A stretch of DNA of 64,000 nt from Pseudomonadota bacterium (lineage in GTDB: Bacteria > Pseudomonadota > Alphaproteobacteria > Rhizobiales > Amorphaceae), in NCBI GenBank assembly GCA_038745295.1, contig JBCDLN010000001.1, positions 4,572 through 68,571 on the forward strand. The letters are read 5' to 3'. The position numbers and the translations under genes are program-made. A model generated the notes under the pieces. It had not been told where the DNA came from. It saw nothing but the letters and a program-made list of their open reading frames with translations, and made no database searches. Of this stretch, positions 2 through 60,185 are shown piece after piece (position 1 is the first letter of the stretch; each line of letters starts with the position of its first letter).

Positions 2-3349
<3,348 letters not shown>

Positions 3350-11335: not shown

Positions 11336-11451
11336 GGCGGCAGCCTCCGGACAACGGCCTTGAGGGTGTTGATTCTCAAAAACCCTGCCTGATCCGCGGG
11401 GGCTGTGTCGTGGGGGCGGCTCGGCTTTTGCACCGCCTCGGGGCGAAGGCG

Positions 11452-23258: not shown

Positions 23259-23397
23259 GACTGGGGCGCTGTTAGGGTGAGGCGACGGGTATTGCGGGGC
23301 CGCCTCGTTGTCCCGCGCTGTGGGTGCCATCTATGAGGTCTTGGGTGCGGGTTTGGCCTAACGGCCTTGACCGGCTGCAATTGCGGAGGGCTGGGAA

Positions 23398-35438: not shown

Positions 35439-37601
35439 GTGAGGATTACGACTGTGAGCAATTTTAACGATCCAACTGTTCAGGTCAAAGTCAACTCTGG
35501 CTATATCGATACTGGCGATCGAGCCAAAACCTATGTCTTCGACGAGGATGGACCCGGTTCCTTCCGGGTCATTGGCACCAGCGATGTCAAAGATGTTTTG
35601 AACGAGATTGCGGCGACCAACGACGGCAAAACCCAGTGGGGCGAAGACAACAATGGTGACGGCGAGGGCCGCCGGGACATCAACCTGTTCGATGACAATG
35701 GCAATGCGTCCGACGATTTCGTCGCGCTGCTGAGAGAGGCGTTCGAGGGCGATCAGGGCATCACCGTCGTTCCGGACAGCATCGAAAACGGCACGATCAC
35801 GCTCGCGATTGCCGGTCAGAAGTCCACCGACCTTCTCGTTTTTGACGGCGATTACGTCAACGACGCGTTCGCGCAAGTGAAGAATGATCTGCCGATCGAT
35901 GTTCTGAAGGCACTCGCCGTGGAGGATCCAAGCGGGTACGCCGAGATGTTCGGCAGCAGCTTTGTCGACATGGGTGATGGGCGCTCAAAAATTGGCGTTT
36001 ATGAATTCAGTGAAGATGTCAACGATTCCTTTTACTGGAGTCACGACAAGCACCTCAATGAGGATGTGTATTCCCTGTTTGATCGGGTGAATAACCAGTT
36101 CCAAGATGAAGATGCTGTCGCCTTGGTGAAAGCGGCGCTCGCCGAGAAATGCGGGATCGCCGATTATGAGGGCCTGGAGTACCGCAGTGACGATGGTCAG
36201 GCGATTGTCATCGACCTCACCACAAAAGGCGGAAACATCGACACCATTGTGCTCCACGGGTCGGAGATTGAGGCCGCCATTGCGGACTTCGAAGACACCT
36301 TTGCGGGCAACCATGAGGGTGGCAACGTCTTTGAGGTAACGGCGCTGGAACTGGCCGCGCTCAATTCCATCGACGGGGAGGCCGGCTGCGACACGGTCAA
36401 GCTGATCGAAGGGGGCACTTTCGACTTCACTAACGTGACGCTGAACAGCATCGAGGCGATCACCACCGATGGCGCCAACGCTGAACTGGTGCTCACAAGC
36501 GGCGCGCAGGCGATGCTGGTCCAAAGCGCCGATGGCGACAACGACACTGCGGTGCTCGACTACGCTCCGATTGTCTTTGAAGAGATTTTGTCGCTTCTCA
36601 CCAGTGGCATTGAGACCGTCACCTTCGGCGCGGGCGAGGGGCCGTTCAACACCGCAACGCTCATTGACGACGGTCAGACGGTGAAGATTGTCGGCGATGA
36701 CAGTGAGTTTGACGTGTTCGGCTTCACCAGCCGGGCGGAGTATGTGGATGTGGCGAGTGGTGTGGTCCGGCAACGGACCACGGAGCTTGATGATGGCTCA
36801 ACCCGCGTCATCAACTATGACGCTGAAGGTGTGATCACGGACCTCACTGTGACTGATGATCCGGACGGAAACCTTCCGATCACCAGTATCTCTGAGCTCT
36901 TCACCGATGGTATTATCGCATCCCGCGAGATTATCTATGACGATGGGACCCGCGATGTGCGCACGTTCGATGAGAACGGCAAGCTCATTCAATTGGTGTC
37001 GCACGACGGTGCGGACGGCACGGCTGAGGATTACTTCGAGTACAAGACAAAAACACTGGAGTTTGACAGTGAAGCCGGCACTCGGCTGAAAAACACATTC
37101 ATCTTCGATGATGATAGCGACACAGTCAGCGTTGTGCGCACACTGGATCAAGAGAATCCGGGTCATTATACGGAGGTGACCACGTTCGTTGATGGTTCCA
37201 CGCTCACCGTTGAGGCGGGGCACAGCACCGGTCCGCTTCTGAAAACCCTGATGTTCGCCGACGGTGATCAGCAGATCGTGGGTTTTGACGGCGAACAGAT
37301 CATCCAAGGTGGCGCCGGCGACGACACCATGACCGGCGGCGAAGGCAACGACACCTTTGTGGGCCTGAAAGACAACGGCAATGACGTCATCACCGACTTT
37401 AACGCCGCTGGGAATGATCTGTTGGATCTGACGCTGCTTGGCGTGGACAGTCTGGCTGACTTGACCGACGCGGGGGCCATCCGCCAGGAGGGCGCGGACG
37501 TGGTGATTGATTTTGGCGATTTGTCGGGTGATGCGAGCGGCGAGATTGTGCTGCAAAACACCAACCTTGCCAGTCTCAGCGACGACGATTTCCTGATCTG
37601 A
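35439..37601 (+). CDS. Large acidic secreted protein with C-terminal RTX (hemolysin-type calcium-binding) repeats; probable type I secretion substrate
   Basis: QGGAGDDTMTGGEGNDTFVG nonapeptide repeats are followed by the tail ITDFNAAGNDLLDL...DDDFLI. It is very Asp/Glu-rich and has no Cys-rich or enzymatic motif that I recognise. An alternative GTG start at 35454 follows an AGGA. Confidence 0.7.
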   Translation: MRITTVSNFNDPTVQVKVNSGYIDTGDRAKTYVFDEDGPGSFRVIGTSDVKDVLNEIAATNDGKTQWGEDNNGDGEGRRDINLFDDNGNASDDFVALLREAFEGDQGITVVPDSIENGTITLAIAGQKSTDLLVFDGDYVNDAFAQVKNDLPIDVLKALAVEDPSGYAEMFGSSFVDMGDGRSKIGVYEFSEDVNDSFYWSHDKHLNEDVYSLFDRVNNQFQDEDAVALVKAALAEKCGIADYEGLEYRSDDGQAIVIDLTTKGGNIDTIVLHGSEIEAAIADFEDTFAGNHEGGNVFEVTALELAALNSIDGEAGCDTVKLIEGGTFDFTNVTLNSIEAITTDGANAELVLTSGAQAMLVQSADGDNDTAVLDYAPIVFEEILSLLTSGIETVTFGAGEGPFNTATLIDDGQTVKIVGDDSEFDVFGFTSRAEYVDVASGVVRQRTTELDDGSTRVINYDAEGVITDLTVTDDPDGNLPITSISELFTDGIIASREIIYDDGTRDVRTFDENGKLIQLVSHDGADGTAEDYFEYKTKTLEFDSEAGTRLKNTFIFDDDSDTVSVVRTLDQENPGHYTEVTTFVDGSTLTVEAGHSTGPLLKTLMFADGDQQIVGFDGEQIIQGGAGDDTMTGGEGNDTFVGLKDNGNDVITDFNAAGNDLLDLTLLGVDSLADLTDAGAIRQEGADVVIDFGDLSGDASGEIVLQNTNLASLSDDDFLI

Positions 37602-37630
37602 CGGGGTGTGCCTCGGCAACAGGCAAACAA

Positions 37631-37673
37631 AAGGGGTGTGCGGCCCGGTAAAGTGGGACGCACACCCCTTTTT
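37631..37673. terminator. Bidirectional rho-independent terminator between convergent RTX genes
   Basis: AAGGGGTGTGCG (37631-37642) pairs with CGCACACCCCTT (37659-37670). It is preceded by an A-rich run (caaacaaaa) and followed by TTT, and sits between the stops at 37601 (+) and 37727 (-). Confidence 0.8.
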
Positions 37674-37726
37674 AGTTTGTCTGTCTCGGTGCGCTGACTG
37701 ATGTGAGACGCGCGGCCGTCAGATCA

Positions 37727-38668
37727 TCAGAAGATAATGAAGTCGGATTCTTGGAGGCCAACAAAGTTTTCGACGAGAATACTGGTTGTATCACCATTGA
37801 ACGTCACGAGTGAGTTGACGCCATTGTCGAGGATGTTGATGTCGGCAAATCCATTGGCGAGGGCGAGAAAGCTGACTTTGATGCGGTCTTCGCCGGATGT
37901 GAAATCGACGATCGTGTCCGCGCCGCTGTTGGCCTGCATCACGAAGATATCGTCGCCTTCTCCACCGCGCAGGACGTCGTCGCCGAGTTCACCAATCACC
38001 CGGTCGTCACCCATGCTTCCGTCGAGAGTGTCATTGCCTCTCTCTCCGACGACACGGTCGTTGCCTTCGCCGCCGATGAGAATATAGTCGCCAGCTCGGC
38101 CCGCGAGGGTATCTGCTGCATCGCTGCCGAGGATCACATCGCGGCCGAACGTGCCGATGGTCAAACCACCCGTGTCCGGCGCGACGTCGGTGTAGGTGCG
38201 GAAGAAGTTCTCGATGCCGAGCGGGCCATCAGCGCCCAGCCCCAAAAGCGTCACGCTCGTCCCAGCGAACGATACGACAAGGTCGTCGCCCTGCACCACT
38301 TGGTTGATTGAGCTCAACAGAAGGGGAACGGGGGAGGTAATTGTCCCAAAGTTGAGAAGGTCACCGCTCAAGCCGCGCTGAAAGTCGGTGATGGTGTCAT
38401 TGCCTTCGTTGGCGCCGAAGCGGAATTGGTCAATGCCAGCCCCGCCAGTCATTTCGTCGTCGCCTTCGCCACCCAAGAGGGTGTCGTTGTCGTCATTGCC
38501 GAAAATCGTGTCGTTGTCGCCCTGGCCCAGAAGGAAGTCGCAGCCGGCATCGCCAAACAGTTGATCGTTACCGTCGTTACCGCGCAGGACGTCATCAAAA
38601 ATGGTGCCGAGCAGGGTGTCGTTCCCCGGTGTGCCCCTGTCGTCGATGCCTATAATCCCTGTCGACAT
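37727..38668 (-). CDS. RTX calcium-binding repeat protein (probable type I secretion substrate)
   Basis: [67 protein letters not shown], a second repeat block [42 protein letters not shown], and the tail [13 protein letters not shown]...ESDFIIF. Confidence 0.8.
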
Positions 38669-39267
38669 TATCCCATCCTCACTTCTGACTGTTTCCAGGA
38701 TTGTCGGGGTTTGTCGTCGCCATGCCCCAGTCCTGTATCCGAGCGTCGGTTCGCAGTTTCCCTGTCATGGCAACTTCCGCCCACAACGCCCGAGGGCATA
38801 TGACGCCGACGCGGCCACACTTTGTTTAAGGTTTGCCTTAACGTGCTCGCTGTTGCAAGAATTTTGGCCGGAACGGTCAAGGTTATGGGGGGATGGCTCT
38901 TGAACGTGTTGGCCGTGCTGCGAGGGGGAGTGTCTGCCGCTCGGCGACGGCGGATCCGGAGCGCTGGGCCGGCCGTGCGTTGTGTGTCTTTGCGTTCAAT
39001 TCGCTAAAGCTCTGGATTAATTTTGTATGGCGCGCTCAATAAACGCTTGCCGCGTTGGACGGTTCTCGGACTGACAGTGCTGAGCGTGAGAGCGTGAACG
39101 GTCTGATCGGGCCGCCCCACAGCGGACATAGAATGGCCTCAGAGCCTGCGAGTACGTGCCGCGTTGGATTGAGCTCTGTGCTGTCAGCTCAAAGAGAATA
39201 GCGTGTCGTCTGGGTCTCTGGAGATCCAGGGTTTTCTGGGGTGTGGGCCCGATCTTGGGTCCGGGCT

Positions 39268-40245
39268 TTAGATGAGAATGCGCTCCACCTCATCGAGGCT
39301 GATCTCGTCGGCCCGGCGGTCATAAAGCTGCGTGGTGCGGGTGGAGGCGTGGTTTGCCATCTGCGCGGCCTTCTCCAGCGTTCCGTCGTTTTTGAGGTAC
39401 GCGGTGATGCCGGTGGCGCGAAAGGTGTGGCAGCCGATGGGCGTTTGGATGCCGGCCTGCCGCGCCCGTCGCCGGATCATCGCCCACACATTCGCCTGGG
39501 GGAGGGGGCGGGCGGACAGTTGTTTGGTGTGCCGGTCGATGGTGCGGAAGACATAAGACTTGCGCTCGTCCCAGAGGCTGCAGCCATCCAGATAGTCATA
39601 CAAAAAGGCTTCCAGCGTGTGGTGGCAGGGCACGTCATGCCGCTTGCCGCCCTTTTCGTGGAGCCGGACCCAAAGCCGCCGGTTCTGGGTGTAGATGTCT
39701 TCCACTTTCAGCGAGAGCGCGGCGCCCACGCGGGCGAAGGAATAAACCATCAGCCCGATGAGGGCGCGGTCGCGCAGACCGACCGGTTTTGATGTGTTGA
39801 TGGCGTCCAGCAGCTGCCGCGCCTCGGCCGGTTCCAGCACGGGGGTTTTGCCGCGCCGCACGATGTGTTTGGGGCCGCGCACGGACGCGGCCGGGTTGGT
39901 GGGCACCACCTGGCCGACGACGAGCCAGTCAAACAGCGCGCGGATCCCGGCGAGCCGCTGCTTCACGGTGGGTACGGAGTGGGTCCGTCCCAGTTCCTCG
40001 ATCCAGGCTGCCACGTGGATCGGTTGGACATCGCCGAGTGTCTTCACGCTTAGCGTGTCGCACCAAGCGGCGAACTCGACCGCACTCTTTATATAAGAGC
40101 GCCGTGTGTTCGGGTTGCGGATGTGAACGGCGAAGAATTCTAAGAAGCGGTTGCGGGCGTGGTCGTCCGCTGAGGCAAACAGAGCCGGCAGGGTCGGACC
40201 GGGTTTGGCGGGGGTGATGAGGGCCTGTCCAGAGCCGTTCTTCAT
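39268..40245 (-). CDS. Tyrosine-type site-specific recombinase/integrase
   Basis: The C-terminal HTFRATGITAYLKNDGTLEKAAQMANHASTRTTQLYDRR carries the H-x-x-R ... H ... Y catalytic signature. The N-terminal SAM-like domain is RNRFLEFFAVHIRNPNTRRSYIKSAVEFAAWC. The Met at 40245 is preferred to 40272. Confidence 0.85.
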   Translation of the reverse strand: MKNGSGQALITPAKPGPTLPALFASADDHARNRFLEFFAVHIRNPNTRRSYIKSAVEFAAWCDTLSVKTLGDVQPIHVAAWIEELGRTHSVPTVKQRLAGIRALFDWLVVGQVVPTNPAASVRGPKHIVRRGKTPVLEPAEARQLLDAINTSKPVGLRDRALIGLMVYSFARVGAALSLKVEDIYTQNRRLWVRLHEKGGKRHDVPCHHTLEAFLYDYLDGCSLWDERKSYVFRTIDRHTKQLSARPLPQANVWAMIRRRARQAGIQTPIGCHTFRATGITAYLKNDGTLEKAAQMANHASTRTTQLYDRRADEISLDEVERILI

Positions 40246-40463
40246 GGCACCAAAATGGCACACTATATACATTGGATAAAGGATATTATCATATGTATTT
40301 TGCGTTCTCTTTTATGCCGGGCGCCGGGGCGGGTACCCCGACGTGGAAACCGGTATGGTCGTGGAGTGCGTCGCACCGCTCCTCGCAGCGCACCAGACGC
40401 CAATAAATCCGTCACTCCTCGTGAGATCGAGGGTGGTTTTTATGGTGTCATTCCCGCCCGACC

Positions 40464-42029
40464 CTAATGCGTAGAACCTTTGGGCCAGTCCATTGTGATG
40501 GGTGCGGATTGAGAGCTGGATGTGTTCCGCTTGACGATATCGGCGAGCGAAAACGTCTCATTGATTGTCTTCCAGCCCAATGCGCTGAAGGTTCTCTCGT
40601 TGAAGACGTTGACCGATAGCAACGGATTGGTCAGCGCATGGGAGAAGGCGTCAAGTGCCACCATACGCCCGATCATCGGTGGAACAGCTGATTCCACGGG
40701 CGCATCTTCAGCCATCAGGCCAACATAAAATTCGATCTGATCGACACTTGAATACACCGCTTTGAGAGCATTGATCCGCGTTTCGTCGCCTGTAATCTGG
40801 TTAAAGTCGGTCACAGTCGGGTACGACATGGCCGTCCGGTACGTGTTGTAGCTTGCGACTTGGGTTTCTCGCCCTTGGAGGATGGTTGCAAGTTCAACCG
40901 GCAACAGGAATTTGGCTGTGTTTGCCAAACCGAGCCGCCATGCACGGTTGGCAGATGCCGCGGCCAACATCTCTTGCACTCCGTGCTCAATGAGGAGTTG
41001 GTTGTTGAGCAGAAGAGTTGCGCTTGGGTACTGTTGCTGCGCGACGGTGACTTCGGACGGCACCAATGAATGCCAGCGATAAAGAAGGTTGAACTCAACC
41101 GGAATCCAGTTCGGCCGGTTCCACTTGGCTTCCCAAACAAACTGCGGGAAGGCGCGCAGGCGGAAATGATACGGTGCGATGTGGTTGATATATTCTTCAA
41201 TGACGACCTTGATGAGCATTGCAATCATCGTATTGCGCGAGACTTCGAACACCCGGTCGTCGTCCCAAGATGGTTCTTGGGCCGCAATGTTGTCCGCAAT
41301 TCGATTATGCTCCCGCAGAAACAACGTGGTCATCGCGGCGGTGAAGGGCGTTGAGTTTGAGCGCTCTCCTGCGAAGGCAAAGATCGTCCGCTTTTGTTCC
41401 AGCGGGGTATCGTCAGAAAGTCGAGAGGGGAGGGGCAAACCCTCAAATTCCGGCTTGAGGTTGCCGTCTTCGTCAAATAGGCGCGGCGCGAATTCGCCTT
41501 CGGTACTCTCGACTGACTTTAAACGACCTTTGCGATGCGGATCGTGCAATCGAACAAGCGTGGTATGATGTTCAGTATATCCATAAATCTGGTTGAGATC
41601 GATCTGATGGCTGGTTCGCGTGCGTCGTCTATCTTCATCGTCCGTGAGAAGAAATCCGTCAGTAAACCATTGCGCGAACACCGGAAACAACATTGTTGAT
41701 TTGGGTGATAGTGTCGGACCGCTTTCAGGAATCCGAAACAGCGCAGCAACATCTTGGGCATCCGGTAAGTTGGGAATTTCGGTCGCAGGTGCGCGACGGC
41801 CAAAATATGTCTTGTCCATCAGGCTTCGCCAGGACGTGTAGTTCGACAGTGTTGAGAACGCATGCGGTCTATTCACGGCCTTGCTCATCGCATTATTGAT
41901 GATGAGGCGGTTCACCAAGCGCTCCAAGAAGGGCACCGATTGCAAAAACGACCATAATGGTCTGAAGCGTTTTAAGGCTGTGGACTGTATTGTGTTGATG
42001 AAGCCGTCGCGGCTGGTATCGCGTTTCAT
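40464..42029 (-). CDS. Animal-heme-peroxidase superfamily protein of the cyclooxygenase / alpha-dioxygenase / linoleate-diol-synthase type (putative fatty-acid heme dioxygenase)
   Basis: VFAQWFTDGF (compare COX FAQHFTHQF), TSHQIDLNQIYG (compare HGVDLNHIYG), LREHNRIADNI (compare LREHNRVCD) and EFNLLYRWHSLVP (compare EFNTLYHWHPLLP, which holds the catalytic Tyr and the proximal His). Lower GC than the surrounding locus. Confidence 0.75.
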   Translation of the reverse strand: MKRDTSRDGFINTIQSTALKRFRPLWSFLQSVPFLERLVNRLIINNAMSKAVNRPHAFSTLSNYTSWRSLMDKTYFGRRAPATEIPNLPDAQDVAALFRIPESGPTLSPKSTMLFPVFAQWFTDGFLLTDDEDRRRTRTSHQIDLNQIYGYTEHHTTLVRLHDPHRKGRLKSVESTEGEFAPRLFDEDGNLKPEFEGLPLPSRLSDDTPLEQKRTIFAFAGERSNSTPFTAAMTTLFLREHNRIADNIAAQEPSWDDDRVFEVSRNTMIAMLIKVVIEEYINHIAPYHFRLRAFPQFVWEAKWNRPNWIPVEFNLLYRWHSLVPSEVTVAQQQYPSATLLLNNQLLIEHGVQEMLAAASANRAWRLGLANTAKFLLPVELATILQGRETQVASYNTYRTAMSYPTVTDFNQITGDETRINALKAVYSSVDQIEFYVGLMAEDAPVESAVPPMIGRMVALDAFSHALTNPLLSVNVFNERTFSALGWKTINETFSLADIVKRNTSSSQSAPITMDWPKGSTH

Positions 42030-42030
42030 A

Positions 42031-43257
42031 TCAACCCGCCCTAAGACGCACCCGATAGTGTTCGGGGAAGGGTCCGTCCTTGTAATCGATCGTGCCGCCG
42101 CAATCGTCTAGTGGCGTGACATTCGCCAAGAAGATTTGCCGGACTGTTTCTGGAATGATCTGTTCGCCGACATAGCGGCCAAGACATTCGTGATGGCCGC
42201 GACCAAAGTGTGAGTATGTGTCGTGCGGCCGATCGCCGGAAAATGTTTGCGGGTCCGGCGTGTAGCCGGGCGAGGCCATCGGCGAAACCGTCATTAACGC
42301 GATGAGACTGCCAGCGCTCACCGACCGCGCGTGCGGGCGGCCTGGCGCCAATGTTGCCTCGCGCGATGCAACGCGCAGAACGAACGTGTTGATGGGGTCA
42401 AAGCGCAGGGCTTCCCACACCAACGGATCGAATTTTGCCGGATCGTCTTTGGCGTTGTGGGCGGCCTCGCACCGGGCGGGATCGGACAAAAGCTGCCGCG
42501 TTGCCTGGATGATGGCGTGGGCGCTGGTCTCCACCGCGCCGACCAAAAGCCCGGCCGCGTTGGACAAGACGCGCGATCGCTCCATCGCATGGGTGGTAGC
42601 GCTCAAACGGGCGAGCCGCGCGAGCACAGTCTCACTGCAGTCGTCAAATCCAGCCTCGATCCGCTGATCGATCCAGGCGCGCAACGCGACGCCCGCCTCG
42701 ATGCCGGCTTGATACAACGCCGGATCGCGCGTCAGATTGTAGAAAAACGCCATCTGCGTGGCTCTCGACCATGCAAGCAGCGTGGTTTCATCGGGACCCG
42801 ACACACCGAAATATTGGTCAACAATGTGCGCGGGGACTTGGCGTCCCACCGTCGCCGCGAGATCCACTTCGCCTGAGCAACTTTTGAGAATTGCACTGGC
42901 TTTTGATGCCACCAGCGCGCGAATACGCGGCAGATCCTCCCAGCGCAGGAGGCTCCGCATGACGCTTTTCTCATAATAGTTTTCGTTGGCCCCGTCGCGC
43001 GCCAGCATAAATGGCCCGACAGAAGGGTCCATGTTGGGGGCGTGCGGTACATTGAAGACTTCGTGCCGCGACAGCGCGTCGACAACATCTTGCGCATCGG
43101 CCACCACCACAAAAGACGGCGTTTGTAGAATGGGGCGATGCGCTGTGAGTTCGGCTGACAAAGCAAACGGCGCGTTACGGGCAGCCTGAAGAAAGAAGCC
43201 GACCTTTTGAGCAGGCTGATCATCAGGAATTTGATCGTATTTGTCTAAGAAATTCAT
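42031..43257 (-). CDS. Cytochrome P450
   Basis: Cys-ligand loop FGRGHHECLGRYVGEQI (F-x-x-G-x-x-x-C-x-G), I-helix LLVGAVETSAH (G-x-E-T-S) and ExxR in WEALRF. The stop is 1 nt from the peroxidase ATG. The ORF is open to the GTG at 43293; the ATG at 43257 is preferred. Confidence 0.85.
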   Translation of the reverse strand: MNFLDKYDQIPDDQPAQKVGFFLQAARNAPFALSAELTAHRPILQTPSFVVVADAQDVVDALSRHEVFNVPHAPNMDPSVGPFMLARDGANENYYEKSVMRSLLRWEDLPRIRALVASKASAILKSCSGEVDLAATVGRQVPAHIVDQYFGVSGPDETTLLAWSRATQMAFFYNLTRDPALYQAGIEAGVALRAWIDQRIEAGFDDCSETVLARLARLSATTHAMERSRVLSNAAGLLVGAVETSAHAIIQATRQLLSDPARCEAAHNAKDDPAKFDPLVWEALRFDPINTFVLRVASREATLAPGRPHARSVSAGSLIALMTVSPMASPGYTPDPQTFSGDRPHDTYSHFGRGHHECLGRYVGEQIIPETVRQIFLANVTPLDDCGGTIDYKDGPFPEHYRVRLRAG

Positions 43258-43599
43258 GATGTCCGCTCTAATCCTTCGAGGAATAATGATCACAATTCAA
43301 AACTGCACCCGTTAATTAACACAGCGAGAGATCGAGGGCCACTCACGCCGTCCAACGATGATCATGGCGCGGCTGGCGCTCCGGTCTGAGGCCTCACCGC
43401 CGGCCTTATGGCGCCAATATGCTGACGTTCGTGATGCGAAACGGGTATAGAAGTACCAGCTGCTTTGCCCGATCTGCCGGTCGACCCGTGGCCGGGCTTG
43501 CGTTAGGGGAGGCCGGGTGCGTCGGCCCAAGCCGCTCACCCCAAAGGGGCGATCTCACGACGCTCCCAGCAACGCTCGGGTTGAAGGACAAGGCTCCCA

Positions 43600-44577
43600 A
43601 TGACCATTCTCGTCACCGGCGGTGCCGGATATATTGGCTCGCACGCCTGCAAAGCGCTCGCGGCCGCAGGGCACACCCCCATCGCCTATGACGATCTTTC
43701 GACCGGTCACCGTTCCGCTGTCCGCTTCGGCCCCTTCGAACACGGCTCCATCTTGGACACCACACGCCTTGCCGAGGTGATGCGCCGGCATGGCTGTCAC
43801 ACCGTTATCCACTTCGCAGCGCTCTCCACGGTGGGGGAAGCGGCGACGCGGCCGGACCTTTATTGGCGGGTCAATGTGGCCGGCACTCTGGCGCTTCTGG
43901 ATGCCATGCGCCTTGTGGGCATCAACCGGCTGGTCTTTTCCTCCACCTGCGCGGTCTATGGCATTCCGGTGCAAATGCCGATCACAGAAGCCACGCCCTG
44001 TGCGCCGCTCAATGTTTATGGCGAGACCAAATTTGCCATGGAGCGGATGCTGGAGGCGCACGCCAATGCCTATGGGCTTGCGGCGGTGGCGCTGCGCTAT
44101 TTCAACGCCGCCGGCGCCGATCCTGACGGGATGATCGGCGAAGAACACGACCCTGAAACCCACGCGATCCCGCTGATTTTGCAGACCGCAGCGGGCCAGC
44201 GCGCCCACTTTACTGTGTTTGGCGAAGACTATGAGACCCGCGATGGCTCCTGCGTGCGCGACTATGTGCACGTCACTGACCTTGCTGATGCCCATGTCCG
44301 CGCGCTCGATGTTTTGCGCGAAGGCACCATGGACGCCATCAATCTGGGCTCAGGCGATGGCTTTACCGTGCGCGAGGTGGTGGGTGTCGCCCGGCAGATC
44401 ACCGGCCGCGAGATCGCGGTCGAGAGCGGGCCACGCCGGGTGGGCGATCCGCCCGTTTTGACGGCCAACGCCACCAAAGCTGAGGCGGTGCTTGGCTGGA
44501 CACCCCAGCATTCTGGCCTTGATGAGATTATTGGCACCGCATGGCGCTGGATGAGCGAATTCAGCCCCCGCCGGTAA
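43600..44577 (+). CDS. galE: UDP-glucose 4-epimerase
   Basis: MTILVTGGAGYIGSHACKALAAAGHTPIAYDDLSTGH..., FSSTCAVYG, YGETKFAMERML, LRYFNAAGADPDG and RDYVHVTDLADAH are collinear with GalE/ExoB. Confidence 0.9.
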   Translation: MTILVTGGAGYIGSHACKALAAAGHTPIAYDDLSTGHRSAVRFGPFEHGSILDTTRLAEVMRRHGCHTVIHFAALSTVGEAATRPDLYWRVNVAGTLALLDAMRLVGINRLVFSSTCAVYGIPVQMPITEATPCAPLNVYGETKFAMERMLEAHANAYGLAAVALRYFNAAGADPDGMIGEEHDPETHAIPLILQTAAGQRAHFTVFGEDYETRDGSCVRDYVHVTDLADAHVRALDVLREGTMDAINLGSGDGFTVREVVGVARQITGREIAVESGPRRVGDPPVLTANATKAEAVLGWTPQHSGLDEIIGTAWRWMSEFSPRR

Positions 44578-44644
44578 TGCGCTGCCGACCGGCTGGATCG
44601 GCCTGATCTCAGATCGAACTGTGTTCTGCCGCGCACCCCAAAAC

Positions 44645-54840: not shown

Positions 54841-57537
54841 ATGATAACCGATTCCTGGGTGTTTAATCAGATGACTGGAAGTGACACACCATCGAATGTC
54901 TTAACCGAGACATCCGATATTTTTTGGGGTGCCGGCCATCAACGCTGGTGGCATCTTGAACACAACCGCGATGGCCCCAGCGTCGATGTCATCGATATTT
55001 GGGATGATTATAGTGGCGCCGGTGTCACCGTCGCTGTTCATGATGAGATGGTCAATTTTAATCATCCAGATCTTAAAGAAAACTATGATTCTTCAATCGA
55101 TTATGATCTGAATAAACGAGCTACCAAACTCGATTACCCCTTTGGCACTGACGCATCGCACGGGACAGCGGTCGCAGGTGTGATTGGTGCGGCCAACAAT
55201 GGATTTGGCACCATTGGAATCGCGTATGAAGCGCGACTGACATCGCTCGCGTTCAGTTACGAGTCCGAAAACGTCATCGACGAGGTCCTCACCGGCATCT
55301 CACGAGCCAAAAACTACGACATCGTCAACAACAGCTGGAGCTTTGTCAAAGCATTCACCGATCGAAATTTCGGCGATAGTCTGATCGAACCTGTCACGGA
55401 AGGGCGAGACGGGCTGGGCACTATCATGGTGTTTTCAGCCAGCAATCAGCGCTCGGCGGTCTCGTCAAACTATCTGGATTTTCAGAACTCGCCATACGCG
55501 GTCGCAGTGGGCGCGGTCGATAAAGAGGGTGATGCGGCGTCATTCTCATCGATCGGCACCAATGTTTTGGTATCCACCGCCGGCGTGAACATCAAAACCA
55601 CCACGAGGGACGACAACTATAGCGGAGTCGACGGCACATCGTTCGCGGCTCCTATGGTATCGGGCGTGGTTGCGCTCATGTTAGAAGCTAACCCCGATCT
55701 TGGTTACCGCGATGTTCAAGAAATCTTGGCCTACTCATCCAAGATTTCCGAGCTTGGTGATCGCGGTCACACCGCCAATGATTGGGTCATCAATGGCGCT
55801 GACAATTATAATGGCGGCGGCCTGCACTATAGCGACGTATTCGGATACGGCTTCGTCAACGCTTTCGCGGCTGTACGTCTGGCTGAAACCTGGACTAAGC
55901 AGCAAACCATCGATAACCTGCAAACGCATGTGGTCGACAAACAGTTCGACACACCGCTGAGGCTGGTGGCGGGAGACACCGACAGCCTGTCGGTCAGCTT
56001 TGAGGTGACTGAAAACATCGTCGCCGAGCATGTCCAACTCGCGCTCGACTTCTCCTGGCGCGACAGCGGCAACCTGGAGGTGTACCTCACCAGCCCAGAC
56101 GGCACGCGCAGCCAATTGATGTATGATCTCTACACACCTGATGCAGTTGGCGATTTCAGGCTGTTCGAGTTCACGACGGTCGCCTCCATGGGTGAGAATG
56201 CGGCCGGCACATGGACCATCGACATCGTCAATCCGGACCCGGACGCCAACTTCAAAGGCGAGACGATGACCGGTGAATTCAAAGGGTTCACCGCAACAAT
56301 CCTCGGTGAAGCACCGTCGGTCACCAACACCTACATTTACACCGATGAGTTCGCAGTCCTCTACGACGACGAACTCACCGAGCGTGTGGTGTTGCGCGAC
56401 CGCAATGGCGGGACCGATACCATCAACGCCGCCGCTGTTACCACCGATTCCACGCTTGATCTCAACCGGGGACCCGGTGCGGTGATCGCTGGGCATGCGT
56501 TGACCATTGAAGGGCTTATCGAGAACGCGGTCGGCGGTGATGGTGACGACACGCTCATCGGCAACAACGCCGACAACCACCTTCATGGCGGCCGCGGCGA
56601 TGACCACTTCACACTCTCCGCCGGTGACGACACGCTGGACGGCGGCCGCGGTCAAGACAAGCTCGTCATTGAGGCTGATTTTAACGCCTTCAGTGCGTTC
56701 GAACTGATCGGCGACACACTGTCGCTCGCCTTCAATGACGGTGCCACAGCCCTGATCCAAAGCATTGAAGCCTTCGTGGTGGATGGGGTGAACTACGGCT
56801 ACAATGCCCTAGTCGATGCTCTGGAGGACGTGAGCAATACCGATGACCGGCCAGACAGCGGCCAGGGGAGCGGGGGCGCCAGCGTCATCACACCACCACC
56901 GCCAGCAGACACGCCGAAGGATGATGTTCCCCCGAACAACACCGGCAACGATGACGATGACACACCGCACGATTGGCTGGGCGAAGCGCCGGACGATGCC
57001 ATCCTGGGCAAAGGGGGGGCAGAGCGCCTGAAGGGCAACATGGGCACCGACTCATGGCTGGACGGCGGCGCAGGCGATGACACCCTTCTTGGTCTTGATG
57101 GTCAGGACACGCTGATTGGCGGCGAGGGCGATGATCTTCACTTCGGCCATGGCGCCAACGATGTTTTGAAAGGCGGCAACGGTAACAACCGTCTGGTCGG
57201 CGGCGAAGGTGACGACACGCTGATCGCTGAAGCTGGTGATAATGTGCTCGTGGGCGAAGAGGGCGCGGACACGTTTGTCATCTCAGCCGATACGTTCGGC
57301 GGCAAGCAGCGCATCACCGACTTCTCGGCCGCCGACGGTGACACCATCGTGCTGCTCGATCCGGACAACATCCTCGACACAATGGACATCGTCATGGCGT
57401 TATCGTGGGGGACTGGTGTGCAACTCAGTGCCGTCAACAAAAAGGGAGACGCACTCTCAATTGTCGAAATCCATGGTGATTTTGACGCTGAAACACTTCT
57501 TCAGCTGAAGGAGGTGTCCAGCGAGCTGCTCATTTGA
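54841..57537 (+). CDS. Secreted subtilisin-family (S8) serine protease with a proprotein-convertase P-domain and C-terminal RTX calcium-binding repeats
   Basis: Catalytic triad contexts GVTVAVHDEMV (Asp), SHGTAVAGVIGA (His) and GTSFAAPMVSGVVALMLE (Ser). The P-domain-like segments are LEVYLTSPDGTRSQLMY and GENAAGTWTIDIVN. RTX repeats are GGDGDDTLIGNNADNHLHGGRGDD and GGEGDDLHFGHGANDVLKGGNGNNRLVGGEGDDTL. The tail is ITDFSAADGDTIVLL. Confidence 0.85.
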   Translation: MITDSWVFNQMTGSDTPSNVLTETSDIFWGAGHQRWWHLEHNRDGPSVDVIDIWDDYSGAGVTVAVHDEMVNFNHPDLKENYDSSIDYDLNKRATKLDYPFGTDASHGTAVAGVIGAANNGFGTIGIAYEARLTSLAFSYESENVIDEVLTGISRAKNYDIVNNSWSFVKAFTDRNFGDSLIEPVTEGRDGLGTIMVFSASNQRSAVSSNYLDFQNSPYAVAVGAVDKEGDAASFSSIGTNVLVSTAGVNIKTTTRDDNYSGVDGTSFAAPMVSGVVALMLEANPDLGYRDVQEILAYSSKISELGDRGHTANDWVINGADNYNGGGLHYSDVFGYGFVNAFAAVRLAETWTKQQTIDNLQTHVVDKQFDTPLRLVAGDTDSLSVSFEVTENIVAEHVQLALDFSWRDSGNLEVYLTSPDGTRSQLMYDLYTPDAVGDFRLFEFTTVASMGENAAGTWTIDIVNPDPDANFKGETMTGEFKGFTATILGEAPSVTNTYIYTDEFAVLYDDELTERVVLRDRNGGTDTINAAAVTTDSTLDLNRGPGAVIAGHALTIEGLIENAVGGDGDDTLIGNNADNHLHGGRGDDHFTLSAGDDTLDGGRGQDKLVIEADFNAFSAFELIGDTLSLAFNDGATALIQSIEAFVVDGVNYGYNALVDALEDVSNTDDRPDSGQGSGGASVITPPPPADTPKDDVPPNNTGNDDDDTPHDWLGEAPDDAILGKGGAERLKGNMGTDSWLDGGAGDDTLLGLDGQDTLIGGEGDDLHFGHGANDVLKGGNGNNRLVGGEGDDTLIAEAGDNVLVGEEGADTFVISADTFGGKQRITDFSAADGDTIVLLDPDNILDTMDIVMALSWGTGVQLSAVNKKGDALSIVEIHGDFDAETLLQLKEVSSELLI

Positions 57538-57570
57538 TGGCGTTCTATCTCAGATCGCGAGCAGCAACAT

Positions 57571-57601
57571 AAAAAAGGGTGCTGGAATGATCCAGCACCC
57601 T
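57571..57601 (-). terminator. Rho-independent terminator (canonical on the minus strand) between convergent protease and RTX genes
   Basis: AGGGTGCTGGA (57576-57586) pairs with TCCAGCACCCT (57591-57601) around a 4-nt loop. On the minus strand the hairpin is followed by TTTTTT (the complement of 57571-57576). Confidence 0.75.
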
Positions 57602-57625
57602 CATCAGTCCGATAGGACCAACTCT

Positions 57626-58345
57626 TTAGAGGGACGGGACGGAGTCGATCGCAGCCTGCGCGCTTTGCGACAGGTCGTCCAGGTCAATGGTGAAGTTGTC
57701 TTCGGTCAGAACTTCGTTCCGAACGTTCACCGTGGCCGTTCCTTCTTCAGTCTGATACGTGACCAAGGTGTGCTTGCCATTGATGATCTCGATTTCCAGG
57801 CCTGCAATACCAGCAAACCCTTCACCCTCTTCACCATTGTTAATGAAGAAGATATCGTCTGCTTGGCTGAATCCCCAGACTTTGTCGTTACCGGCCAAAG
57901 CGTCGATCACGATCACGTCTTGACCATCTTCGAGCTTACCATTCCAGTTGTTGCGCTGACCAGCGAGGATGGTGTCATCGCCTGCGAAGCCAACGAAGAC
58001 ATCTTCGCCGTCGCCGCCCCACAGGGTGTCTTCGCCGTTTGAGTTGTTATCGAACGACCCAAGGAGGAGGTCGTTGTCAGCATCACCGAGCAGCTTGTCG
58101 TCGCTGCCGCCACCGTTCAGCGTGTCTTCGCCGGTTCCACCCAGGACAGTGTCGACGCCGGTCCCACCGACAACATTGTCGTCGCCGCCGTTGGCTTCAA
58201 CACGGTCACCTTGAGCATCCGCTTCAATCGTGTTCGCATCATCAGAGCCGATCACGAAATTCGCTTGCTCAACAACATCTTGGCCGACGGCGTCGGCGGT
58301 GAAATTGGGAGTGTCTGCATCAAGGACAAATTTGTTCAGCATCAC
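57626..58345 (-). CDS. Small RTX calcium-binding repeat protein (probable type I secretion substrate)
   Basis: GGDDNVVGGTGVDTVLGGTGEDTLNGGGSDDKLLGDADNDLLLG and GGDGEDVFVGFAGDDTILAG; acidic, with no N-terminal signal peptide evident. Confidence 0.75.
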   Translation of the reverse strand: MMLNKFVLDADTPNFTADAVGQDVVEQANFVIGSDDANTIEADAQGDRVEANGGDDNVVGGTGVDTVLGGTGEDTLNGGGSDDKLLGDADNDLLLGSFDNNSNGEDTLWGGDGEDVFVGFAGDDTILAGQRNNWNGKLEDGQDVIVIDALAGNDKVWGFSQADDIFFINNGEEGEGFAGIAGLEIEIINGKHTLVTYQTEEGTATVNVRNEVLTEDNFTIDLDDLSQSAQAAIDSVPSL

Positions 58346-58748: not shown

Positions 58749-60185
58749 GTGACATTTGTCGTGATCGCTGTCTTCTGGTGTATTTTTCTTTATAGCTTTG
58801 TCGCGCCGATCCATCGGATCGTCTATCTTATAATGTGTTCCATTTGTTTTGGGACATTCTCAACGATTCCGACATCGGTCACGGGCTTTGTCTTTCTACC
58901 CGCCCCGCTGTTTGCTTTGGCGCTGGTCATGCGTGTCGCGCTGGCGCCCAACGCGCCGCAATTCATCATCACATCGGTACTCGTCCCGCGCCGCATGCTG
59001 CTTCTGTTCTTGTTTCTGGTTGTTGCGTACATCACGACACTGTTCATGCCACGCCTGTTCGCGGGTGGTATCGACGTCGTCACGTTCCGCGGCCGCGTCG
59101 ATACTACCGTGCCGCTGCGACCGACACCGCAGAATTTGTCGCAGCTTTTCTACGTCACGATCTCAGTGTTCTCCGTGGTGGCGTTCGCCTTTATTTTGCG
59201 CAAACCGGTCATGCGGCAGCACGCGTTGAAGGCAGTCTGGTGGGGTGGGGTGTTCACCGTTGCGACAGGGGTACTCGATTATCTGAACAGCTTCCTGCCG
59301 CTCGACCCGCTGCTTGCGCCATTTCGAACAGCCAGCTACGCGCTCGCGACTGATGTAGCGCTTTTGGGCGGCAAGCGGGTGGTGGGCCTGACATCGGAGG
59401 CCTCGGCGTTCGGCAATATCTGCATCGCCTTCGCGCTGACGCTGTACTTCTTCCGGCGTGCCATCGACGATCAGCGCCTGCGCGATGTCTGGGCGCCGAT
59501 TCTGATCGTGATGTTGGTGGGGATGGTGTGGCTGTCCAAGTCCACTGGGGCCTATGTGATCTTGTGCATCGCCTTCGCGCTGGCCGGGCTGGACTGGCTG
59601 CTGCGCGCCGCGAGGGGCCGCAAACGTAGCCGGGTCACCACTGGAATCGGCACCGAATTTTGGCTCGCGTTCGGCGGCGTGATGAGCGTTCTCCTCGTGC
59701 TCTTGACCAATCCAGCCGTGTTTGAGCCCATCTACGCCCTGTTTGAGCGGTTGGTCTTGAACAAGGCCGAATCCACTTCGTTCGAGGAACGCGGGATGTG
59801 GCGCCTCACGGCCTGGACCGCCTTCCTGGACAGCAGCTTGTTCGGTGTTGGGGTCGGCTCGACACGCGCCTCTAGCGCCGTCGTGTCGACATTTGCCAGT
59901 ACCGGGCTCATCGGCGCGCTGTTCTACTATGGTTTCCTCTTGCAAACCGCATTGCGCAAAGCGCCGCCAGGCAGTGTCGATGGCCCCATCATTGTCGTTG
60001 GATTCCGCTGGTGGATCATTCCGGGCCTATTTGTGGGCCTGTTCGTCGGCACCGTCGATTTCGGCATTTTCAACGCATTCGTGCTCGGTCTGGTCACCGC
60101 AGTCGGCACCACACGAATGGCGCAGCCGCTGAGAGCGGAGGGCATCACGCCAAGGTCACGGCTCCCAGCCTCACGGCCGAGCTAA
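58749..60185 (+). CDS. O-antigen-ligase-like / Wzy-type polysaccharide polymerase membrane protein
   Basis: More than 10 hydrophobic segments, plus a loop with RGMWRLTAWTAFLDSSLFGVGVGSTRAS that resembles the Wzy_C signature (R...W......P.FG.G.G). GTG start. Confidence 0.6.
   Translation: MTFVVIAVFWCIFLYSFVAPIHRIVYLIMCSICFGTFSTIPTSVTGFVFLPAPLFALALVMRVALAPNAPQFIITSVLVPRRMLLLFLFLVVAYITTLFMPRLFAGGIDVVTFRGRVDTTVPLRPTPQNLSQLFYVTISVFSVVAFAFILRKPVMRQHALKAVWWGGVFTVATGVLDYLNSFLPLDPLLAPFRTASYALATDVALLGGKRVVGLTSEASAFGNICIAFALTLYFFRRAIDDQRLRDVWAPILIVMLVGMVWLSKSTGAYVILCIAFALAGLDWLLRAARGRKRSRVTTGIGTEFWLAFGGVMSVLLVLLTNPAVFEPIYALFERLVLNKAESTSFEERGMWRLTAWTAFLDSSLFGVGVGSTRASSAVVSTFASTGLIGALFYYGFLLQTALRKAPPGSVDGPIIVVGFRWWIIPGLFVGLFVGTVDFGIFNAFVLGLVTAVGTTRMAQPLRAEGITPRSRLPASRPS

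Follow-up and report, generated by a model that had tools for sequence, protein, structure and literature searches.

Bacterial and animal cyclooxygenases (COX) have been classed together as 'Family 4', whose bacterial members have been described only as putative sequences (PMC4420034). The only characterised bacterial COX relative cited in the accessible literature is the linoleate 10S-dioxygenase (10S-DOX) of Nostoc punctiforme (UniProt B2J5P4), a protein of 542 aa that has three COX-like membrane-binding helices (alpha B-D), carries F143-T-D-S-F where COX has F205-T-H-Q-F, and converts oleate and linoleate into 10S-hydroperoxides (PMC13049297). In Nostoc these hydroperoxides are cleaved by a catalase-related lyase, the product of a separate neighbouring gene (Brash et al. 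2014, as cited in PMC13049297). A COX-superfamily dioxygenase followed by a second haem enzyme is an arrangement of a kind already known from Nostoc, from fungi and from animals. Here we present a gene pair of this kind from a stretch of 64,000 nucleotides (hereafter the window) of an uncultured Pseudomonadota bacterium, available as a metagenome-assembled genome (MAG; GenBank GCA_038745295.1, contig JBCDLN010000001.1), in which a cytochrome P450 gene and a gene for a COX-like haem dioxygenase follow each other on the minus strand with one base between them. We put at roughly 55% the probability that the two form a translationally coupled, two-haem module for the oxygenation of fatty acids.

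The COX-like protein fits Family 4 (Zamocky et al. 2015) and, within it, the Nostoc 10S-DOX type. Like the Nostoc enzyme, it falls in the range of ~520-545 aa, has membrane-binding helices and no EGF domain, and carries the motifs F-T-D-x-F, YIxxI[TA]PY, FxxxY...H and DAFx[QH]A at near-identical spacing; the Nostoc system is likewise made of two genes, with the dioxygenase and a second haem protein encoded next door to each other. The differences lie in the partner, which is an upstream, translationally coupled P450 in the window and a catalase-related protein in Nostoc; in the replicon, which is of plasmid type in the MAG and a cyanobacterial chromosome in Nostoc; in position 125, which is Gly in the COX-like protein and Ser in Nostoc 10S-DOX; and in an insertion of ~18 residues after the membrane-binding helices, which the Nostoc clade has and the COX-like protein does not.

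The fungal enzymes PpoA/5,8-LDS, 7,8-LDS, 8R/9R/9S-DOX-AOS and 10R-DOX-EAS likewise combine a Tyr-radical dioxygenase with a P450, and single-chain fusions of the two exist in bacteria as they do in fungi. The order, however, is reversed: where the genes are separate the P450 precedes the dioxygenase, and in bacterial fusions the P450 is N-terminal, whereas in fungal fusions the dioxygenase is N-terminal. A bacterial-style HxC Cys-pocket is common to the window P450 (H-E-C) and the fungal CYP domains, 9-AOS also reading H-E-C (PMC13049297), but the CYP domains of fungal LDS and EAS have an Asn at the distal axial position where the family of the window P450 has Glu-Thr. The fungal dioxygenase domains have a distal His (AxxIthd) and lack COX-type membrane-binding helices, unlike the window protein with its FAQWFTDGF and COX-type helices, and their identity to COX is ~25%, compared with ~31% for the cyanobacterial 10S-DOX type with its COX-like membrane-binding domain (MBD) (PMC13049297). 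An initial annotation of this DNA, made from the sequence alone, called the pair a split, reverse-order version of fungal Ppo; this is right as an analogy of logic but conjectural as a statement of descent. The dioxygenase is closer to COX and to cyanobacterial 10S-DOX than to the fungal enzymes.

Animal COX shares with the COX-like protein the equivalents of Tyr385/His388, Tyr348, Tyr355 and Gln203, and the animal cascade, in which COX is followed by PGIS (CYP8A1) or TXAS (CYP5A1), has the same logic of a haem dioxygenase and then a P450. Missing from the COX-like protein are the EGF domain, the distal His207 (replaced by Asp), Arg120 (Met) and Ser530 (Ala461), and the window P450 has only the superfamily fold in common with CYP8A1 and CYP5A1. 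Bacteria of this kind generally lack arachidonate, and nothing suggests that the COX-like protein forms endoperoxides or synthesises prostaglandins.

The gene pair

The single nucleotide that the initial annotation placed between the two minus-strand genes is confirmed by the listing of open reading frames (ORFs) and by the sequence itself, which reads ...GGT TGA T ATG AAA... across the junction; a purine-rich AGGGCGGG lies 8-15 nt 5' of the COX-like ATG, within the 3' end of the P450 gene (Table 1). The motifs that it had quoted from both proteins were all found at coordinate-checked positions. It had also called the P450 complete, which stands, and had let its range run to 43293, where the mechanical ORF opens with a GTG. 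The start of the gene is, as read from the homologous sequences, almost certainly the ATG at 43257 and not this GTG: in an alignment of 22 P450 sequences (the window P450 and 21 homologues; alignment A2) each of the 21 either starts with the Met encoded there or aligns to it, and the aligned homologues start M-x-F-L...

Table 1. Coordinates, in the window, of the gene pair, its sequence motifs and its immediate surroundings
Feature	Position	Strand	Remarks
P450 gene	42031..43257	-	408 aa from ATG 43257
P450 mechanical ORF	42031..43293	-	GTG at 43293 is a mechanical start only
P450 I-helix GLLVGAVETS	42523..42552	-	acid-alcohol pair Glu243-Thr244 (408-aa numbering); alignment A2
P450 K-helix ExxR motif EALR	42403..42414	-	alignment A2 and coordinate check
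P450 haem-thiolate loop FGRGHHECLG	42178..42207	-	ligand Cys358; alignment A2 and coordinate check
P450/COX-like junction TGA-T-ATG	42027..42033	-	stop 42033-42031, one spacer base 42030, ATG 42029-42027
COX-like haem dioxygenase gene (PF03098)	40464..42029	-	521 aa
N-terminal amphipathic helices, aa 7-49	41883..42011	-	align with COX membrane-binding-domain region; no EGF domain
Distal haem-face helix FAQWFTDGF, aa 118-126	41652..41678	-	Gln120 = COX Gln203, Asp124 = COX His207
LREHNRIAD, aa 238-246	41292-41318	-	coordinate-checked
Central substrate-channel motif EEYINHIAPY	41169..41198	-	Tyr280 = COX Tyr348, Tyr287 = COX Tyr355
EFNLLYRWHSLVP, aa 312-324	41058..41096	-	catalytic Tyr317 (COX Tyr385), proximal His320 (COX His388)
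Terminal substrate-site motif DAFSHA	40635..40652	-	Ala461 at COX Ser530 (aspirin) position, Val457 at COX Gly526 position
Variable segment, COX-like gene plus ~160 nt of 3' untranslated sequence	40303..42046	-	present in window, replaced in sister contig L082
Tyrosine recombinase (XerC/D-like)	39268..40245	-	probable start ATG 40245 (MKNGSGQ...); mechanical ORF start 40272
Divergent intergenic region, P450 operon and UDP-sugar epimerase	43258..43599	.	presumed promoter region
UDP-sugar epimerase gene	43600-44577	+	

The COX-like dioxygenase

A search of the downstream protein with the Pfam profile PF03098 (An_peroxidase), proposed in the initial annotation as a check, gave a match far over the cut-off (159.6 bits, cut-off 25, E 1.5e-46, residues 132-507). 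Among PDB sequences (phmmer) it is matched best by COX-2 and COX-1 of mouse and human (E 2e-60 to 1e-49); the alignment to COX-2 spans query residues 18-504 and COX residues ~60-546, from the membrane-binding domain to the C-terminus, and begins at COX-2 residue 64, nothing preceding the MBD-like helices in the COX-like protein. Plant alpha-dioxygenases, in the same set of PDB sequences, align to the C-terminal quarter only (E ~1e-13), and ordinary animal peroxidases over short stretches only. In the AlphaFold model (pLDDT 80.7, pTM 0.85) helices are predicted at aa 7-21, 23-31 and 33-49, and the top 35 Foldseek matches of the model are all COX-1/2 (TM 0.80-0.83, 26-28% identity), followed by alpha-dioxygenase and myeloperoxidase at TM 0.64-0.72. 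A homologue from Nostoc punctiforme FACHB-252 (P0287), which belongs to the Nostoc clade and reproduces the published 10S-DOX numbering F143TDSF, Y305, T310 and Y342, is 42% identical to the COX-like protein over residues 2-502 (E 8e-149). Given this full-length identity and the matching substrate-site motifs and spacing, the COX-like protein belongs, as judged from its sequence, to the bacterial cyclooxygenase / 10S-dioxygenase family. Its earlier assignment to the fatty-acid-oxygenating (COX/DOX) branch is upheld by the Pfam match, the COX-2 alignment, the Foldseek result and the identity to P0287.

The HMMER alignment to COX-2 pairs 'faqwftdgf' with 'faqhfthqf', which places Asp124 where the distal His207 stands, and it aligns COX Arg120 with a Met. 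EEYINHIAPY fits the published 10S-DOX motif IMxxY305IxxIT310Py and DAFSHA the published 'I483GxDA487FxQ490A' (PMC13049297). The segment EFNLLYRWHSLVP is unchanged in all full-length homologues examined; its Tyr-x-Trp-His is Y317-R-W-H320, with Trp319 corresponding to COX Trp387. Across 20 and then 80 homologues there is no variation, or next to none, at Q120, W121, D124, Y280, Y317, W319 and H320. The HMMER alignment to COX-2, of the kind that had been suggested as a further check, placed the Tyr, the proximal His and the distal Asp, and agrees with the initial annotation that the radical Tyr and the proximal His are kept: Y317 and H320 align with COX Y385 and H388 and do not vary in the homologues. 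The position given for the distal Asp was also correct, but the Asp is no peculiarity of this gene: it is invariant in all 80 loci examined and occurs as F-T-D-S-F in the biochemically active Nostoc 10S-dioxygenase. It thus suits a dioxygenase that releases its hydroperoxide, rather than some unknown chemistry. We also considered that the active-site residues might vary with the type of partner, and rejected this, because one and the same pattern, Q-W-D-G...Y...YRWH, is found in the 80 loci whether the partner is a P450, a catalase-related protein or absent.

Relatives of the COX-like protein form more than 3,000 homologue clusters in the protein database, the nearest of them (~54% identical) in Acetobacteraceae, Bradyrhizobium and Methylobacterium, and a scan of one genome per species found them in 426 of 185,579 genomes. 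No NCBIfam model matches the protein; the exact protein is annotated in the database only as 'peroxidase family protein', and the JGI label of its homologues is often 'prostaglandin-endoperoxide synthase 2'. We regard it as a new, divergent member of a known family, for which an Asp at the distal-His position is also already known. In one homologue, P0355 (855 aa), the same chain also holds a PF09994 domain, taken here to be of the Tle1-type phospholipase / alpha-beta hydrolase kind.

Conservation of the pair

Two sets of loci were compared: 80 genome loci centred on COX-like genes, one genome per species, and 80 metagenome loci centred on P450 genes. Both are best-scoring subsets that include near-duplicates, the metagenome contigs not being independent samples; gene calls are longest-ORF approximations, partners were found by tblastn with a few probes and by ORF clustering, and the trees are neighbour-joining (NJ) trees without support values. 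In 25 of the 80 genome loci an orthologous P450 gene (34-48% identity) adjoins the COX-like gene, directly upstream on the same strand in 24 of the 25 and downstream in the remaining one (L051). At L059, which is not among the 25, the P450 is represented by no more than a C-terminal fragment. The 25 paired loci span Alphaproteobacteria, Cyanobacteria, Planctomycetota and Actinomycetota, and P450-linked COX-like genes occur in every major clade of the NJ tree of COX-like proteins. Tight junctions are common elsewhere too, with overlaps of 1, 4 or 8 nt in many loci and a shared coordinate in L085.

The two activities are also found in single proteins. A profile search of 1.84 billion representative proteins returned 717 P450 relatives at E<=1e-30, and among the top 150 of these are three natural P450-COX-like fusions, P0363 (911 aa), P0368 (979 aa) and P0379 (969 aa), each from one metagenome contig, in which Pfam confirms both domains, the P450 N-terminal and An_peroxidase C-terminal. 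In P0368 and P0379 the two are joined by Ser/Pro/Thr-rich linkers of 35-60 residues, whereas in P0363 the P450 runs into the last membrane-binding helix. That the fusions are frameshift artefacts can be rejected for P0368 and P0379 because of these linkers, and is unlikely for P0363, whose join lies inside an MBD helix. Since the three sit in different parts of the P450 tree, their sequences point to independent origins.

Conservation as neighbours in other genomes had been named earlier as a test of the pair, and the 25 of 80 loci in four phyla, together with the fusions, answer it in the pair's favour. On the strength of conserved adjacency, tight junctions and Rosetta-stone fusions in the 'reverse' order, the functional coupling that the initial annotation proposed appears established about as firmly as sequence data allow, and it is very probable that the P450 and the COX-like enzyme act in one pathway.

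In another 9 of the 80 genome loci (L029, L031, L042, L043, L052, L061, L071, L075 and L076) the P450 is absent and the COX-like gene adjoins one for a catalase-related haem protein of ~360 aa (Pfam Catalase, E 9e-8), for which NCBIfam has no model. In the NJ tree these loci fall into three separate clades (Scytonema, Rhodovulum/Amaricoccus and Lichenihabitans), which argues that the P450 and the catalase-related protein substitute for each other as partners.

Seen from the P450 side, 26 of the 80 metagenome loci have at least 2.5 kb of flanking sequence on both sides; in 12 of these a COX-like gene lies immediately downstream, in 12 a gene of the di-haem cytochrome c peroxidase family is adjacent, and in 2 neither is present, counts that are indicative only, since some of the contigs are near-duplicates. 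Among the loci L090-L169, 24 of 49 metagenome loci have the di-haem gene and no COX-like gene. Di-haem partners (L086 1429-3333, L087 7156-9216, L088 5397-7259) match NCBIfam NF040606 (460-490 bits) and Pfam RoxA-like_Cyt-c, rubber oxygenases being only distantly related. The di-haem-linked P450 clade is nested within the COX-linked alphaproteobacterial P450 clade, and this nesting suggests that the P450 has swapped between partners of the COX-like and the di-haem type. The di-haem partner brings to mind Pseudomonas aeruginosa, whose oleate diol synthase consists of two enzymes of the di-haem cytochrome c peroxidase family, a 10S-dioxygenase and a 7,10-diol synthase, that take a monoenoic fatty acid to a 10S-hydroperoxide and on to a diol. 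Neither enzyme of that system is COX-like or a P450; it is relevant here because about half of the P450 family stands beside a gene of that di-haem family and lacks a COX-like one.

Peroxidases of a third kind occur in fusions with relatives of the P450. In P0432, P0456, P0465, P0468, P0481, P0489 and P0497 (889-955 aa) and in P0415 a DyP-type peroxidase is N-terminal and a P450 of the same broad family C-terminal; no description of such natural DyP-P450 fusions was found in the searchable literature, which lacks most subscription journals. All seven long proteins with a C-terminal P450 that were sampled are DyP fusions, and An_peroxidase occurs in none of them. The wiring of the P450 family to peroxidase-fold haem enzymes takes two forms, operons and fusion proteins.

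Several other genes recur at these loci. A gene for a protein of ~202 aa with a signal-like N-terminus (for example L085 3098-3706, L068 3972-4580 and L086 3361-3969) is the immediate upstream neighbour of the P450 gene at 39 of 64 metagenome loci and at 8 genome loci; the protein has no match in Pfam or NCBIfam and accompanies COX-linked and di-haem-linked P450s alike. Genes for patatin-like phospholipases recur in other genomes beside COX-like genes, P450 genes or both (L042 7673-9904, L004, L019, L043; L010 9264-12122, L015, L018, L021, L046; L086, L087), in a layout that resembles a bacterial cascade from phospholipase to dioxygenase to haem partner, and an acyl-AMP ligase gene is present in locus L088. 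In Acetobacteraceae MAGs with a COX-like gene and no P450 (L002, L003, L005, L008, L009, L010, L015 and L016), the COX-like gene is preceded by the gene for a divergent 1,130-aa protein (for example L009 2354-5746). This protein contains SAM, adenylate/guanylate cyclase, AAA ATPase and TPR-like regions and could be a dedicated regulator.

These partners and neighbours bear on the idea that the COX-like protein is a peroxidase for a non-lipid substrate, such as a secondary metabolite or a polysaccharide component, which detoxifies peroxide from an uncoupled P450 or oxidises the P450's product. The COX-like, di-haem and DyP partners do all come from peroxidase superfamilies, and in the window the pair stands among glycosyltransferases, sulfotransferases and exporters with no lipase nearby. 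We nevertheless think it very improbable: every family member has an Asp where efficient peroxidase chemistry calls for the distal His, neither the radical Tyr nor the substrate-channel tyrosines of COX type vary, and the protein is 42% identical to P0287, itself a close homologue of a proven oleate/linoleate dioxygenase. Moreover, the neighbours in other genomes are phospholipases and not polysaccharide genes, so the polysaccharide context would be specific to this plasmid.

The P450 and its family

Against the Pfam p450 profile the upstream protein scores 17.5 bits, below the gathering cut-off of 22.8; its orthologue in L046 passes with 37.4 bits. With phmmer, 138 P450 sequences in the PDB match the protein (best E 3e-12), the best of them bacterial P450 monooxygenases, and NCBIfam P450 subfamily models match it with E values down to 3.7e-14. 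The AlphaFold model (pLDDT 84.7) retrieves more than 1,600 P450 chains with Foldseek, headed by CYP260A1, PikC, CYP142, CYP109, EryK and CYP153A (TM 0.72-0.79, 15-21% identity). The P450 profile search that the initial annotation had called for thus falls short at the Pfam cut-off, but the PDB sequence matches, the AlphaFold and Foldseek results and the orthologues that exceed that cut-off establish the protein as a P450.

The family is compact, at ~416 aa, and the window P450 is 44-49% identical to its relatives. Its invariant features are MDPSVGP, GLLVGA[IV]ET, EALRF and HxGxGxHxCLG, and in alignment A2 the residues H350, G352, G354, H356, C358, L359 and G360 do not vary. The Glu-Thr pair of the I-helix is retained in nearly all COX-linked and di-haem-linked relatives, one COX fusion reading ...EPT, whereas in the DyP-fused relatives the acid residue is gone (...IPTT, for example GLLIGAIPTT); this loss suggests that the COX-linked P450s may keep it for a reason. 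With its intact Glu-Thr pair, and with none of CYP74, CYP8A1 and CYP5A1 among its best sequence or structure matches, the P450 does not look like a member of those families. We place it in a distinct bacterial family of class-I type whose members hardly ever lack a peroxidase-fold haem partner.

Some members of the family carry additional sequence. P0420 and P0440 (~700 aa) have an N-terminal domain of ~300 residues with a weak GST_C_2 match and are named 'cytochrome P450/glutathione S-transferase' by JGI, and P0377, P0385, P0389, P0406, P0425, P0461 and P0507 have extensions of 70-300 residues.

Proposed mechanism and the role of the P450

All functional statements in this section are inferences from homology and genomic association. 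In the mechanism that we propose, the COX-like protein is probably seated in the membrane by its N-terminal amphipathic helices, and a haem-generated radical on Tyr317 would take an allylic or bis-allylic hydrogen off an unsaturated C18 fatty acid in its free form, into which O2 would then be inserted. Asp in place of the distal His would leave the enzyme with poor peroxidase activity, and the fatty-acid hydroperoxide would be released. This dioxygenase step is well supported, at the level of sequence, because of the protein's membership of the bacterial cyclooxygenase / 10S-dioxygenase family; that the fatty acids would be ones freed from lipids is suggested by the patatin-like phospholipases and the acyl-AMP ligase that recur nearby elsewhere. 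The P450, made from the same mRNA, would take the released hydroperoxide as both substrate and oxidant and convert it into a diol, an epoxy-alcohol, an allene oxide or a chain-cleavage product with no NAD(P)H/ferredoxin chain, and the product would probably be a bacterial oxylipin, which might serve as a signal, in defence or to modify membrane or host lipids. The P450 would play the role that falls to the catalase-related lyase in Nostoc, to the CYP domain in fungal DOX-CYP enzymes and to PGIS or TXAS after animal COX.

We consider it slightly better than an even bet that the P450 consumes the dioxygenase's hydroperoxide independently of redox partners; its hydroperoxide isomerase chemistry we infer. 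Four lines of evidence argue for this step: a catalase-related protein replaces the P450 in 9 of the 80 genome loci, as in Nostoc, where such a partner is a proven hydroperoxide lyase; the P450 family almost never occurs without a peroxidase-fold haem partner; neither ferredoxin/reductase genes beside the pair nor a reductase domain in the P450-COX-like fusions was detected; and the lipid-related genes just named recur nearby in other genomes. For the third of these, tblastn was run with three probes, which cover only putidaredoxin-type, 3Fe-4S-type and putidaredoxin-reductase-type proteins, and found no ferredoxin or reductase gene in the 64-kb window, in 25 genome loci or in 80 metagenome loci totalling 532 kb; the negative result covers ~105 loci and ~0.9 Mb in all.

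The strongest competitor is a P450 that is coupled to the dioxygenase and yet is a conventional monooxygenase, dependent on O2 and NAD(P)H and served by a housekeeping ferredoxin and reductase encoded elsewhere. Such a P450 would act on the fatty acid ahead of the dioxygenase, by hydroxylation or epoxidation, or on the reduced hydroxy product afterwards, and would not rearrange a hydroperoxide. We judge it unlikely, though well short of negligible, and most of the points that weigh against a hydroperoxide-consuming P450 speak for it. E243 and T244 are invariant in the 22 sequences of alignment A2, and the family-wide GLLVGA[IV]ET I-helix and standard FGxGxHxCxG Cys loop give the P450, by sequence, the look of an oxygen-activating enzyme; the loss of the acid residue in the DyP-fused relatives (IPTT), set beside its retention in the COX-linked ones, points the same way. 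The best Foldseek matches, among them PikC, CYP142, CYP109, CYP153A and CYP260A1, are ordinary bacterial class-I monooxygenases, which depend on redox partners, and CYP74, PGIS and TXAS are absent from the top 60 PDB sequence matches and the top 50 Foldseek matches. To our knowledge, CYP74, CYP8A1 and CYP5A1, the classical P450s that rearrange hydroperoxides or endoperoxides, have lost the I-helix acid-alcohol pair. At the distal axial position an Asn is found in the CYP domains of fungal LDS and EAS, in PGIS and in plant AOS, but fungal 8R/9R-AOS does carry a Thr (PMC13049297), so that the criterion is not absolute.

The remaining points on this side concern context. The sister contig L082 (described below) retains the P450 with no COX-like gene, which fits a monooxygenase and suggests that the P450 may have a role of its own. 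About two-thirds of the COX-like genes have no P450 within 6 kb, and it follows that the dioxygenase can work alone. Of the accessory genes found at other loci, including the lipid-related ones (patatin, the ~202-aa protein, the di-haem partner), not one occurs in the 64 kb of the window. Most bacterial P450 genes, finally, have no adjacent redox partners, which makes their absence here weak evidence. The initial annotation had noted this absence, correctly as far as the probes reach, and had concluded from it that the P450 is an isomerase; taken alone this conclusion is weak, given the invariant Glu-Thr pair and the monooxygenase-like structure. On the other hand, a conventional monooxygenase sits uneasily with zero ferredoxin or reductase genes at all of the loci searched and with fusions that lack a reductase domain; the alternative neighbour of the dioxygenase is catalase-related, of a class known to act on hydroperoxides; and near-obligatory peroxidase-fold partners are hard to square with a mere tailoring hydroxylase.

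Genomic setting

The window carries a plasmid-type module, with genes for ParB/RepB (5027-6001), ParA (6069-7310) and a replication initiator protein A (RepA/RPA, 10097-11533), and polysaccharide genes that encode GDP-mannose dehydratase, epimerases, sulfotransferases, glycosyltransferases, flippases, Wzz and Poly_export, so that the plasmid-type polysaccharide setting proposed at the outset is borne out by both groups of genes. The COX-like gene has a GC content of 52.7%, the lowest in this region (GC at third codon positions, GC3, 0.61) and the P450 gene one of 59.7% (GC3 0.67), compared with 63-67% (GC3 0.73-0.82) for the epimerase, glycosyltransferase and integrase genes; GC and GC3 thus agree with the lower-GC block seen earlier. 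In other genomes, too, the COX-like genes lie 1-4 GC points under their P450 partners. In the divergent intergenic region upstream of the P450 (Table 1) there is no convincing sigma-70 match, the numbers of hits in scans for promoters and terminators were no higher than for shuffled sequence, and the terminator scan showed no minus-strand terminator between the COX-like gene and the integrase.

Window positions 54323-42047 have a counterpart of 81-91% nucleotide identity on a contig from another MAG (L082, GCA_039178655.1). This contig keeps the polysaccharide genes, the divergent epimerase, the P450 (95% protein identity) and the integrase, and has no COX-like gene: homology ends ~15 nt before the P450 stop and resumes ~75 nt upstream of the integrase start, and ~320 nt of unrelated AT-rich DNA (L082 11215-11536) stand in place of the window's COX-like segment of 1,745 nt. 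The window retains no homology to this L082 spacer, the two junctions of the COX-like segment are free of direct repeats above 7 nt in length, and there are no tRNA genes in the 64-kb window. In their respective NJ trees the window P450 and the COX-like protein both stand on long branches next to alphaproteobacterial groups, and this comparable placement mildly favours, on sequence grounds, joint inheritance followed by loss of the COX-like gene in L082.

The presence or absence of the COX-like gene between two contigs of 88-91% nucleotide identity could also mean that the pair is a decaying or dispensable passenger beside a recombinase, with no current function in this replicon; the lower GC3 of both genes than of their neighbours and the long branches of both proteins would fit this. 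We hold this to be the least probable of the readings considered here, at little more than an outside chance, since both ORFs are full length with all family-invariant residues intact and the one-base junction is preserved; the comparable positions of the two long branches near alphaproteobacterial groups are consistent with constrained co-inheritance, although they do not prove it.

The tyrosine recombinase gene lies downstream of the pair and is co-oriented with it, as first described, but it does not belong to the module, being adjacent to the pair in no other locus. Conservation with L082 suggests the ATG at 40245 as its start; an AT-rich stretch, CAAAATACATATGATAATATCCTTTATC, is common to the window and L082 ~40-75 nt upstream of this ATG, and a related tyrosine recombinase gene is found at L083 5919-6908. 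The nearest relative of the window's recombinase gene (80% nucleotide identity) lies beside ParA/RepA on a 36-kb Acuticoccus plasmid from green algae, which carries neither the P450 nor the COX-like gene. A megablast search of window positions 39000-44600 against PLSDB matched only the integrase (80%, the Acuticoccus plasmid) and found no close plasmid there. We rejected the integrase as part of a mobile cassette with the pair, as it is not a conserved neighbour and as L082 shows the P450 in synteny with the polysaccharide locus; the integrase is regarded as plasmid housekeeping or an unrelated mobile gene. The association with algae that was raised in the initial annotation is speculation, its only hint being the green-algal origin of the Acuticoccus plasmid.

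Elsewhere in the window, an R2K-type ATP-grasp gene (8044-8877) lies inside the plasmid maintenance module, and ORFs at 20-3349, 21306-23330 and 58749-60185 (1,109, 674 and 478 aa) have coding-like GC3 and no Pfam match. ORFs at 19420-21309 and 24207-26414 have pectate-lyase-like/epimerase domains. RTX-repeat proteins flank the locus at 35439-38668 and 54841-58345, with a GC content of 50-58%, under that of the rest of the window; one of them is an 898-aa subtilase (54841-57537) with Peptidase_S8, a P-domain and RTX repeats.

Significance

In the searchable literature, with its largely missing subscription journals, we found no description of a bacterial COX-like/P450 operon or fusion, nor of the near-obligate link between this P450 family and peroxidase-fold partners. 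A wider reading, which we consider unlikely but far from negligible, is that the family is an unrecognised, redox-partner-independent and hydroperoxide-driven class of P450s that keeps its Glu-Thr pair and has been wired repeatedly to three unrelated kinds of enzyme, COX-like, di-haem and DyP. The bacterial P450-COX-like operons and fusions would then be living examples of the 'ancient bacterial' dioxygenase-plus-CYP combination, hitherto only a postulated source of the fungal DOX-CYP enzymes, and a prokaryotic counterpart of COX with PGIS or TXAS. If this were true, the oxylipins would derive from monoenoic fatty acids of the bacteria, for instance oleate or cis-vaccenate.

A 2026 review by specialists in the field only hypothesises that the P450 halves of the fungal oxylipin synthases derive from a bacterial P450 that was once joined to a COX-superfamily enzyme, and cites no extant bacterial example of a dioxygenase with a P450 (PMC13049297). 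Such combinations exist today, as coupled operons in four phyla and as at least three independent fusion proteins. The bond of the P450 family to its partners makes it possible to test where the dioxygenase-then-P450 logic of eukaryotic lipid mediators came from, and to test whether a P450 with an intact oxygen-activation pair can run on a hydroperoxide made by its partner. It further directs attention to oxylipins, so far unexplored, of bacteria from soil, from lichens, from plants and from the sea.

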